64,000 bases of DNA. Origin: Thermomicrobiales bacterium. Its GTDB lineage: Bacteria; Chloroflexota; Chloroflexia; Thermomicrobiales; UBA6265. The notes beneath the pieces were generated by a model. That model did not search any database and was not told where the DNA came from. It saw only the letters and a program-made list of their open reading frames with translations. The translations under genes and the position numbers were made by a program. The stretch covers positions 13,129 through 77,128 of the forward strand of contig JBOGUF010000045.1 of NCBI GenBank assembly GCA_050696075.1, in the 5' to 3' direction. This document shows positions 13,001 through 15,194 of this stretch, in pieces. How positions within the stretch are numbered: position 1 is the stretch's first letter; the number at the start of each line of letters is the position of its first letter.

Positions 13001-15194
13001 CGACATTTCGGACCTCGGCGTCGTCCACATGCGCAACGTCCCGCGCACGCCCGCCAACTACGCGCAACGCAGCGGGCGTGCCGGCCGTGGCGGAAAGCCG
13101 GCGCTCGTCCTCACCTTCGCCAGCCAGGGCAACGCGCACGACCAGTACTTCTTCCGTCGGCGGCAGGCGATGATCGCCGGATCCGTCGCACCTAATCGCA
13201 TGGATCTCGGCAACCGGGAGCTGGTCGAGGCGCACCTCCACTCCGTCTGGCTCGCCGCAATTGGTCTCTCCCTGGGCAATTCGGTCGCCGATGTCCTCGA
13301 CCTCGGCCAGCTGAACTTCCCGATCGAGGCTGAGAAGTGGGCGAATCTGCTTCGGACGACGGAGAGCCATCGGTCCGATGTCGTTGCCGCTTTCCGCGAG
13401 ATCACCGCCGCCGACCCGACCATTACCTCCGCCGACTGGTTTACCGACGAATGGCTGGTCCAGACCGTCAGGGACGCGCCCGACGCGTTGAATGTTGCCT
13501 TTGAGCGTTGGCGCGATCTGTACCGGGCCGCTGTCGCCCTCCGCGACGAGGCCCGCCGCAAGATCGATCTGCCGCGATTGCCGCGAAAAGATCGCCAGGA
13601 CGCCGAACGCCAGGAGCAGGAAGCGAAACGCGAAGTCGATCTCCTCTTGAATCAGGGCGATTACACCGAATCGGACTTCTACCCCTATCGCTACCTCGCA
13701 ACCGAAGGCTTCCTCCCCGGCTACAACTTCCCGCGATTGCCACTCCGCGTCTTGGTCTCAGTGCGGGACAGCGCCCAATCGATCGATAGGCCGCGCTTTC
13801 TCGGCCTCTCTGAGTTCGGTCCCTGGAATGTCATCTACCATGAGGGGCGCAAGCACCGCGTATCGTCCTGTATCGTGCCTCCGGGCGGTTTCGACGCCCG
13901 CATCACCAGCGCCCGGCTCTGCAACGAGTGCGGCTACGTCCATCCCGCCAGCGAGGGACCGGTCGATCTCTGCGTCTGTTGCGGCACGATCCTCGATGCG
14001 AAGACATCTGAGTATCCACAGGCACTGCTGGAGCAGCCGACGGCGAAAGCACGCCAGCAGGAGCGGATCTCCTCAGATGAGGAGGAACGTGCCCGCGAGG
14101 GGTATCACATTACGACCCACTACCGCTTCTCGCCGGGGGCGAGTGCCCGTCGTGCCGAGGCGCGAGACGCCTCCGGCGAATGGTCGCTCCTGGAGATCGA
14201 ATACGCGCCTCGTGCGGAGCTTTGGCGCATCAACCACGGCTGGCGTCGATCCGCGGCGCGGGCCGGGTTTACGATCGATGCCGAACGTGGCCGGTGGGGT
14301 AAGCGCGAGGACGACGATCTTGAAGGTGAAAACGGAGACGAGCCAGGACTCCAGACCGTGAGAACCGGGGTCAAGACCTACGTCACCGACAGCCGCAACA
14401 TCCTCCTGTTGCGCCCCATTGCTCCCTCCGCACAGAACGAGGCATTCCTGAAGAGCCTTGCCTTCGCCTTGCAGCGAGGCATCCAGGTGGCATACCAGGT
14501 CGAGGAGAGCGAAGTCGCCATTGAGCTGATCGGCGAAGGCAGCCACCTTCGATTGCTACTCTGGGAAGCCGCGGAGGGCGGCACTGGTGTTTGGGAGCGA
14601 ATGTTGGAGGAGCCGGACTCGTTCGCCGAAGTCGCGAAGGAGGCGCTCCAGGTCTGTCACTTCGATCCAGAGACCGGAGAGCCGGATGCGGAATGGGGCC
14701 GCCGCTGCAAGTACGCTTGCTATGACTGCCTGCTCAGCTACAGCAATCAGTTGGAACACCGATTCCTCAACCGGCATCTTGTCAAGGACTATCTCCGTGA
14801 ACTAGCCACGTCGAGAGTCCAGAGTGCGACGGCGGGCCGCCCCTATGACGAGCAGTACCGATGGCTGCTCGACCGCATCGACCCGGCTTCCAGCCTGGAA
14901 CGCGAGTTCGTCGCATTCCTCCATGCGGAGAAGCTTCGCTTGCCGGACTTCGCCCAGCACCGGCCGCGCTCCGACGTGCCTGTCCAACCAGACTTCTACT
15001 ACGAACGCGATGGTCTGAACGGAGTCTGTGTCTTTGTCGACGGCCCTCACCACGACACCCCAACTCAAACAGCCAAGGACCAGGAGCTACGAGATGCCCT
15101 CGCTGACGAAGGCTTTCGCGTCGTCGTCATCCGGCACGGCCGACCCTTCGACGAGCAGGTCGCACGATACCCCGACGTGTTCGGCCCCGGTTGA
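10026..15194 (+). CDS. giant DExH helicase fused to a DUF1998/MZB-type zinc domain and a C-terminal DUF559/Vsr-like PD-(D/E)xK domain (DrmA+DrmB-like or DruE-like)
   Basis: The track ORF is 9936-15194. I prefer ATG 10026, which follows GGGAGGG at 10013-10019.
- Helicase core: Walker A [17 protein letters not shown], DExH [21 protein letters not shown].
- A distant RecA2 lobe: [42 protein letters not shown].
- DUF1998-type segment: [19 protein letters not shown] followed by CNECGYV...CVCCG.
- C-terminus: [52 protein letters not shown]. Confidence 0.85.
   Translation: [1722 protein letters not shown]

Follow-up and report, generated by a model that had tools for sequence, protein, structure and literature searches.

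A giant helicase encoded in a 64,000-nucleotide stretch of a Thermomicrobiales bacterium (GenBank assembly GCA_050696075.1, contig JBOGUF010000045.1, positions 13,129 to 77,128 of the forward strand; the whole of this stretch is called the window below) very likely ends in a nuclease domain of Vsr/DUF559-like fold, and is identified from its neighbours and sequence matches as ArmC of a type I ARMADA locus (the name stands for disARM-related Antiviral Defense Array), a defence system described by Bell et al. (2025; bioRxiv 10.1101/2025.09.15.676423 / PMC12458937). The tail is a real, conserved domain that is found in hundreds of ArmC-type helicases. An earlier note on this DNA, made from the sequence alone, had correctly picked out the nuclease domain, although it is small and divergent, and the role it would logically have. 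The helicase and its C-terminal modules lie as follows (positions are those of the window).

10026..15194, forward strand: ArmC, a YprA-like DEAD/DEAH helicase with MZB/DUF1998 and a predicted C-terminal nuclease domain (Pfam, PADLOC, BLAST).
14460..14732, forward strand: MZB (DUF1998) four-Cys zinc module of ArmC, residues 1509-1599 (Pfam PF09369, 2.7e-7).
14884..15191, forward strand: predicted Vsr/DUF559-like PD-(D/E)xK nuclease domain, residues ~1650-1752 counted from the GTG or ~1620-1722 counted from the ATG (structure models, Pfam matches of homologues, hhalign).

The longest open reading frame (ORF) for the helicase (9936..15194, forward strand, 1752 amino acids) opens at GTG 9936 and overlaps abiEi. 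Because ATG 10026 has a GGGAGG Shine-Dalgarno sequence 8 nucleotides (nt) upstream, and because all 46 genomic homologues align with the helicase only from about residue 30 onwards, this ATG is most likely the true armC start, with a predicted product of 1722 amino acids. Residue numbers given here are based on the GTG unless stated; numbering from the ATG is lower by 30. Pfam placed DEAD at residues 117-292, Helicase_C at 981-1053 and MZB at 1509-1599, all in one ORF, with the tail fused directly after the MZB/DUF1998 module. Translation confirmed that the last 99 residues of the ORF are the peptide quoted in the earlier note; this peptide occupies 14895..15191 and the stop codon 15192..15194. 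The span that had been assigned to the domain, 14890-15194, therefore ends correctly on the last base of the stop codon but begins 5 nt early and out of frame, and the accompanying residue span of ~1620-1722 fits the 1722-residue protein starting at ATG 10026. The ORF stops 22 amino acids past the last strand of the nuclease domain, and a terminator and promoter scan after the armC stop codon found none.

With residues 1600-1752 as the query, 41 close homologues came up (E 1e-54 to 7e-12); two of these bear the Joint Genome Institute (JGI) name 'very-short-patch-repair endonuclease'. A tail-only profile compared with 1.84 billion representative proteins matched 1125 clusters at E<=1e-3 and 581 at E<=1e-10, and the match sits at the extreme C-terminus in full-length proteins of about 1650-1760 amino acids. 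The peptide, its 41 homologues and the 1125 profile clusters bear out the reading of a C-terminal domain of about 100 amino acids. Conservation was assessed in two sets: the window tail with 43 genomic orthologue tails (n=44; tail identity 32-65%), and a larger alignment of 211 tails. Residues E1655, P1670, D1686, F1687, D1702, G1703, H1706 and D1715 were each kept in all 44 genomic tails, and the same positions were conserved at 93-100% in the 211. The two aspartates singled out in the earlier note as residues to mutate, those of the PDF (D1686) and FVDG (D1702) motifs, are thus invariant in 44/44 orthologues. The putative catalytic residues are encoded at the following positions, all on the forward strand.

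14898..14900: codon of E1655 (E1625 from the ATG), aligned by hhalign with Vsr Glu25; 44/44 and 196/211 tails.
14991..14993: codon of D1686 (D1656 from the ATG), the 'PDF' Asp, aligned by hhalign with Vsr Asp51; 44/44 and 211/211.
15039..15053: D1702-G1703-P-H-H1706, in 'FVDGPHH'; each 44/44, with D1702 in 206/211, G1703 in 210/211 and H1706 in 209/211.
15078..15080: codon of D1715 (D1685 from the ATG), aligned by hhalign with Vsr Asp97; 44/44 and 208/211.

The Vsr active site reportedly comprises Glu25, Asp51, His64, His69 and Asp97, an assignment attributed to Tsutakawa et al. in 1999; we verified this numbering on the E. coli Vsr sequence (locus L048). Aligned by hhalign with E. coli Vsr (MG1655), the tail alignments gave pairwise E-values of 0.003-0.006 and set LEREF on IEKRL (E1655 on E25), PDF on PDF (D1686 on D51) and FVDG on FTHG, and the tail segment holding D1715 fell on ERDRRDISRLQELGWRVLIV of Vsr (D1715 on D97). 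Of the two PDF strings in the tail, it is the second (QPDFYY, D1686) whose Asp aligns with the catalytic Asp of Vsr. D1702 occupies the position of Vsr His64, where Asp is the usual state in DUF559; the same substitution is also visible in the DUF559/Vsr motif written out in the earlier note. H1706 lies near Vsr His69 but is offset by 1-2 positions in hhalign because of an alignment gap, and the exact His register is uncertain.

Pfam DUF559 was matched by 30 of the 41 close tail homologues and REase_MTES_1575 by 15. Among 83 more diverse tails, DUF559 was matched by 22 at E<=0.01 (best 2.6e-5) and MTES_1575 by 10 (best 1e-4); MZB aside, no further Pfam family appeared in more than two of these 83 tails, and PF03852 (Vsr) matched none of the 41 and 83 homologues. 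The hidden Markov model (HMM) consensus of the 211 tails matched DUF559 with E=0.0023 (18.2 bits) and Vsr TIGR00632 with E=0.0019 (18.5 bits), and the window tail itself matched the NCBIfam vsr model with E=0.093 (13 bits). Among PDB sequences, the tail profile came closest to 3r3p (E=0.067), a 'mobile intron protein' that we take to be the Vsr-like homing endonuclease I-Bth0305I; the other direct or profile searches of the PDB matched 3r3p only marginally (0.22 and 1.5), and phmmer of the window tail against the PDB gave nothing meaningful.

The tail shares with DUF559 (PF04480) and REase_MTES_1575 (PF18741), the best Pfam matches of its family, the motif PDF ... hydrophobic-x-DG..H ... D..R..L...G..V.R, but stands well apart as a subfamily of its own that goes with ArmC. 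With E. coli Vsr (TIGR00632 / PF03852; PDB 1VSR, 1CW0), likewise a small PD-(D/E)xK variant, it shares the active-site residues aligned by hhalign and the C-terminal 'D..R..L...G(F/W)RV' helix-strand. It differs in the replacement of His64 by Asp, in having neither the Zn-binding Cys/His cluster (CFWHHHHC) nor the N-terminal arm, in being fused to a helicase instead of free-standing, and in showing no link to Dcm or T:G repair.

Two AlphaFold2 models of the tail, one of 153 amino acids (predicted local distance difference test, pLDDT, 86.4; >90 over the domain) and one of 110 amino acids (pLDDT 90.7), have the same succession of helix-strand-strand-helix-strand followed by two short helices (H-E-E-H-E, by DSSP), with D1686 opening the first long strand and D1702 closing the second in both. 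As modelled, this topology is that of the minimal PD-(D/E)xK core (alpha-beta-beta-beta-alpha-beta). Foldseek against BFVD, a set of viral predicted structures, returned ten matches at E<=1e-3 (from 2e-4) with a probability of ~1.0, among them the DUF559 protein of Pseudoalteromonas phage pYD6-A (E 5.8e-4, root-mean-square deviation 3.2 over 98 columns), a homing endonuclease of a Bacillus phage, a restriction endonuclease of Marseillevirus and DUF2726 proteins. Against the PDB, the weak fold matches are nearly all PD-(D/E)xK enzymes (cap-snatching endonucleases, Hjc, NucS/EndoMS, TnsA, VRR-NUC, FAN1, McrC and PspGI).

Several results weigh against the fold assignment. A direct Pfam scan of the window tail gave zero nuclease matches even at E<=10, the 211-tail consensus fell 2.4 bits under the DUF559 gathering cutoff (18.2 against 20.6 bits) and far from the Vsr TIGR00632 cutoff (18.5 against 97.85 bits), and neither structure model had a PDB match at E<=1e-3 in Foldseek, with Vsr absent from the top 50. 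The hhalign probability of the tail against Vsr was only 6-11%, low because the template was a single Vsr sequence; one sequence was used since the 120 listed Vsr homologues were all at least 80% identical, a diversity too low for a profile-profile comparison. Judged by these scores, the tail falls outside the curated Vsr and DUF559 families as formally defined. At superfamily level we place it with high confidence, as a divergent subfamily within the PD-(D/E)xK nucleases, on their Vsr/DUF559 branch. The Vsr/DUF559 fold proposed in the earlier note is accordingly upheld by several lines that are each weak and sub-threshold, and that converge: its homologues match DUF559 and MTES_1575 but the curated thresholds are missed, and the structural matches are significant among the viral endonucleases of BFVD but not in the PDB.

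The helicase bearing this tail is nearer to Druantia DruE than to DISARM DrmA. In PADLOC the best match of ArmC was DruE3 (6e-89), and DrmA matched weakly (2e-15); the NCBIfam DrmA model scored 19 bits against a cutoff of 950. Pairwise BLAST gave 39% full-length identity to the Deinococcus radiodurans MP1 helicase and 24-36% to E. coli ArmC, with E. coli DruE weaker. Two partner genes precede it on the same strand.

883..3873, forward strand: ArmA, an SNF2/RapA (BrxHII/DrmD-like) helicase of 996 amino acids (Pfam SNF2-rel_dom, ResIII, Helicase_C).
3873..8429, forward strand: ArmB, a PglX/DrmMI-like N6-adenine methyltransferase of 1518 amino acids (Pfam Eco57I, N6_Mtase, MmeI_Mtase; PADLOC DrmMI 4e-80).

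ArmA matched the PADLOC models DpdE (2e-184) and DrmD (3e-94) and a BrxH model, scored 350 bits with the NCBIfam DrmD model (the cutoff of 610 being missed), and shared 42% identity with its homologue in D. radiodurans MP1 and 29% with ArmA of E. coli Sakai. The ArmB translation contains GNPPW, an NPPW motif. ARMADA type I consists of three genes, to which type II adds ArmD, and the C-terminus of ArmC is described as a "predicted active Vsr-type nuclease", DISARM having instead a separate PLD protein, DrmC (PMC12458937); the same description of ArmC was given for enterohaemorrhagic E. coli in mBio in 2026 (PMC13463889). The window combines a YprA helicase with fused DUF1998/MZB, adjoining ArmA and ArmB, and a C-terminal Vsr-type domain; Pfam and PADLOC scans of the ORFs downstream of armC found no further helicase, no nuclease and no ArmD (RelE-GajB-like). 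On these sequence grounds the locus is identified as ARMADA type I, made up of ArmA, ArmB and ArmC.

As in ARMADA type I generally, a BrxHII/RapA-like SNF2 helicase and a PglX-like methyltransferase accompany a YprA-like helicase with DUF1998, which is nearer to Druantia than to DrmA and ends in a single predicted active Vsr-type nuclease, with neither ArmD nor PLD. The window departs from this type in its gene order, armA-armB-armC not being the general type I order (a helicase-last order has been reported for many archaea and cyanobacteria; PMC12458937), and in two further features taken up below, an AbiE pair lying antisense between armB and armC and an additional C-terminal domain of ArmB. 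In D. radiodurans MP1, the helicase with 39% full-length identity also has a homologous tail, and heads the canonical operon (helicase, SNF2 helicase, methylase). The experimentally validated homologue system is E. coli ARMADA type II (ArmABCD; NCTC 12900, EDL933, Sakai ECs_5261-5264), with identities of 29% for ArmA, 25-36% for ArmB and 24-36% for ArmC; our comparison was made on the Sakai genes. Alignment with Sakai ArmC (ECs_5263; 24%, E 6e-42) carries the window tail onto its first Vsr-type domain, where the pattern E / PD(Y) / DG...H / D is preserved. E. coli ArmC is longer, at 2113 amino acids: behind its first Vsr-type domain come a further Vsr-type domain and an inactive EEP domain, neither an extra EEP nor a second Vsr domain being found in the ArmC of the window. 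The fourth gene of the E. coli operon, the RelE-GajB-like helicase ArmD, is absent from the window.

Druantia DruE, the best PADLOC match, probably shares the helicase-insert architecture and likewise has a nuclease appended at the C-terminus; type III DruE carries PLD domains and types I and II carry inactivated Vsr domains (PMC12458937). The partners differ, being ArmA and ArmB in the window and DruH (type III), DruA-D (type I) or DruM/F/G (type II) in Druantia, none of which was matched by PADLOC in the ORFs scanned around ArmC. DISARM class 1 likewise has an SNF2 helicase, an N6-adenine methylase and a YprA-type helicase with DUF1998, but there DrmA and DrmB are separate and the nuclease is the separate PLD protein DrmC, in contrast to the one fused ORF and the PD-(D/E)xK tail of the window. 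In a search of the PDB with a tail-plus-MZB profile, the MZB part matched a 2108-residue 'DEAD/DEAH box helicase' in six entries (9tu7-9tuc; E=0.007), presumably DruE to judge from its length and the 2026 preprints. These entries could serve as a template for modelling the C-terminal nuclease relative to the helicase core.

Among 46 related loci, mostly Chloroflexota/Dehalococcoidia metagenome-assembled genomes (MAGs), the three genes armA, armB and armC are found together in nearly all those whose contig has sufficient length. The closest relatives of the window locus are Chloroflexota/Dehalococcoidia MAGs; closer relatives have the order armA-armB-armC and relatives at 38-44% identity the order armC-armA-armB. 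The tail is present in every orthologue whose C-terminus lies on the contig, except L046. A Pfam scan of the ten genes immediately downstream of the related clusters found no PLD, no conserved fourth gene and no UvrD-like gene; those ten genes encode GmrSD, AAA_15/AAA_21 ATPases, SIR2_2, a ResIII helicase, a kinase, Hsp70 and EF-G. Across another 149 ORFs from the flanks, no Pfam family turned up more than three times and none of those seen at least twice was PLD, singleton PLDs being possible; in the flanking ORFs of the window, Pfam and PADLOC found no PLD. Since no PLD and no fourth gene recurs, these operons have no conserved separate nuclease, which fits a fused tail acting as the nuclease. 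A regular expression for the HKD motif, which gave zero matches in the window and 47 loci, was discarded as a PLD detector because its positive control on E. coli DruE failed. The neighbours of some related ARMADA clusters (L005, L008, L010, L036, L041 and L030) are other defence-type genes, namely GmrSD, AAA_15/AAA_21 ATPases, SIR2_2 and a ResIII helicase; none of them is shared by all the loci, as is typical of defence islands.

We hold it probable that the tail is the Vsr/DUF559-like PD-(D/E)xK nuclease of an ARMADA type I ArmC, working as follows. Methylation by ArmB would mark host (self) DNA, and ArmC would load on unmodified or aberrant (single-stranded DNA-containing) phage DNA and translocate as an MrfA/DruE-like motor, while its C-terminal, Mg2+-dependent nuclease would nick or cleave the DNA being threaded. 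The helicase would carry its own nuclease output, in place of the DrmC of DISARM and of the PLD domains of Druantia III DruE. That the tail is an active nuclease and the main effector of the system is a narrower claim, towards which the balance tips only slightly; its role as the effector is what we infer. In E. coli ARMADA II, defence requires each of the four genes, as well as Walker motifs in ArmA, ArmC and ArmD and an NPPW motif in ArmB, and it is direct, not abortive (PMC12458937).

The alternative that survives best makes the tail a competent Vsr-like nuclease but an accessory one, defence resting mainly on helicase-driven remodelling or displacement of phage DNA and the nuclease mattering only for some phages or in synergy with other systems; we give it perhaps one chance in a handful. 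Three observations count against a central role of the tail and speak for this alternative or leave room for it. The fused PLD domains of DruE III-A are reported to be dispensable, as is DrmC against some phages (10.64898/2026.05.13.724758). The E. coli ARMADA II mutants covered Walker A/B and methylase motifs and left the Vsr residues unmutated. Finally, a sister lineage of ArmC with degenerate tails (~36% identity) retains the armA-armB-armC operon. In its member L046 (Sandaracinaceae, 37% identity), E1655 is replaced by Ala, PDF by LEC, and the DGPxH segment is deleted (tail at 2100-2540); two metagenomic loci, L051 and L052, have tails of the same degenerate type (in L052 at 7800-8228). 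Some ARMADA-like operons can thus dispense with a catalytic tail. Weighing the other way, another group reported DruE to be a helicase-nuclease effector that cleaves DNA (PMC13192584), and the catalytic set is kept in 44/44 orthologues and 93-100% of the 211 tails, a strictness that implies strong selection on catalysis in the lineage of the window and favours the nuclease tail as effector.

The degenerate-tail loci also bear on the question, raised in the earlier note, of whether homologues lacking the tail sit beside a PLD gene. No PLD recurs beside the tailed homologues, as that idea would have it, but the gene found after armB in L046 encodes an HNH_2 endonuclease (E 3.9e-12; 9300-10046), not a PLD. 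The HNH of L046 suggests replacement in trans, and we put forward, tentatively and with no great expectation, that the nuclease position in ARMADA-type operons is a swappable slot. A rule that a degenerate tail goes with a stand-alone HNH was rejected, as it was seen in L046 but not in L052; the link is anecdotal because the gene after armB in L052 encodes a 649-residue protein (15983-17932) with no family match. A Fic protein and an integrase are encoded upstream in L052.

It is far less probable that the tail is an inactivated nuclease fold whose only role is in structure, oligomerisation or DNA binding, the state predicted for the Vsr-like C-termini of Druantia I/II DruE. Inactivated Vsr domains are indeed predicted for Druantia I/II, as are further inactive Vsr/EEP domains for ARMADA II (PMC12458937). 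The sub-threshold scores of the window tail with the curated Vsr and DUF559 models and the replacement of Vsr His64 by Asp point the same way. Against this, the Glu/Asp/Asp/His/Asp set is invariant across tails of only 32-65% identity, an Asp at the His64 position is normal for DUF559, and the genuinely degenerate tails of L046, L051 and L052 look very different.

Scarcely credible is the framing of the earlier note, a class 1 DISARM with a DrmA-DrmB fusion, loss of DrmC and a DUF559 domain newly recruited to replace it, for which the DrmD-like and DrmMI-like partners and the lack of a PLD gene could be cited, given the preference for DruE over DrmA models in both PADLOC and NCBIfam, the fused OB-CON-DUF1998 and Vsr tail as the defining state of the ARMADA clade (PMC12458937), and the antiquity of a tail common to Deinococcus, Thermus, cyanobacterial, actinobacterial and E. 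coli ArmC, which is no recent replacement. The idea that the helicase itself carries the nuclease, in lieu of a PLD protein, is supported, and was already published; the description of the system as DISARM minus DrmC was wrong, the locus being assigned to ARMADA type I.

The remaining genes of the locus are as follows.

8439..9335, reverse strand: AbiEii nucleotidyltransferase toxin (Pfam AbiEii 7e-28).
9332..9973, reverse strand: AbiEi antitoxin/transcriptional regulator (Pfam AbiEi_4 1e-9).
15400..16035, downstream of armC: Cys-rich (CxxC...CxxC) ORF of 211 amino acids, with no Pfam or PADLOC match.
18664..20532, downstream of armC: large serine recombinase of 622 amino acids (Resolvase, Recombinase, Zn_ribbon_recom).

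The AbiE pair, which lies antisense between armB and armC, is an inserted system of its own that stands outside ARMADA, and with it the armC start comes to lie only ~50 nt from the abiEi start codon. The pair was not at this position in 46 related loci, of which only L029 has an AbiEii-like ORF upstream of armC. The extension of ~180 amino acids at the C-terminus of ArmB (residues 1334-1509, ~7872-8399) matches the DarG antitoxin in that protein's C-terminal half (NCBIfam 7.9e-6); because tblastn found no counterpart of it in 47 related loci, it is specific to the ArmB of the window. The extension also resembles a domain in the PADLOC models of type I methyltransferases and S subunits. Two probably spurious ORFs separate the Cys-rich ORF from the serine recombinase, and the downstream recombinase and ORF suggest that the defence genes are on or beside a mobile island. 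A MoxR-type AAA_3 ATPase (6e-61; 20384-21448, reverse strand) marks the start of apparently ordinary chromosomal genes past the recombinase. Upstream of armA, two small ORFs (8-789) contain a TubC_N docking domain (3.8e-8) and a phage FDXHR zinc-binding domain (3.1e-6).

A Vsr-type nuclease on a YprA helicase, in place of the PLD protein of DISARM, is already known as a published hallmark of ARMADA since 2025, and the 'missing DrmC' is the normal state of ARMADA, no anomaly. What the window adds is the assignment of a previously unannotated locus to ARMADA type I, with its own peculiarities in the AbiE insertion, the extra C-terminal domain of ArmB and the adjoining serine recombinase. Whether the Vsr domain of ArmC is catalytically required is a family-wide, experimental question, for which E1625, D1656, D1672, H1676 and D1685 (ATG numbering) are the mutagenesis targets in the ArmC tail and the degenerate-tail lineage is a natural comparison. 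If the nuclease position were a swappable slot, the tail would be a nickase gated by the helicase, which an operon could afford to lose only if a different nuclease were recruited, and ARMADA would be a natural system in which to study the coupling of nuclease output to YprA translocation.

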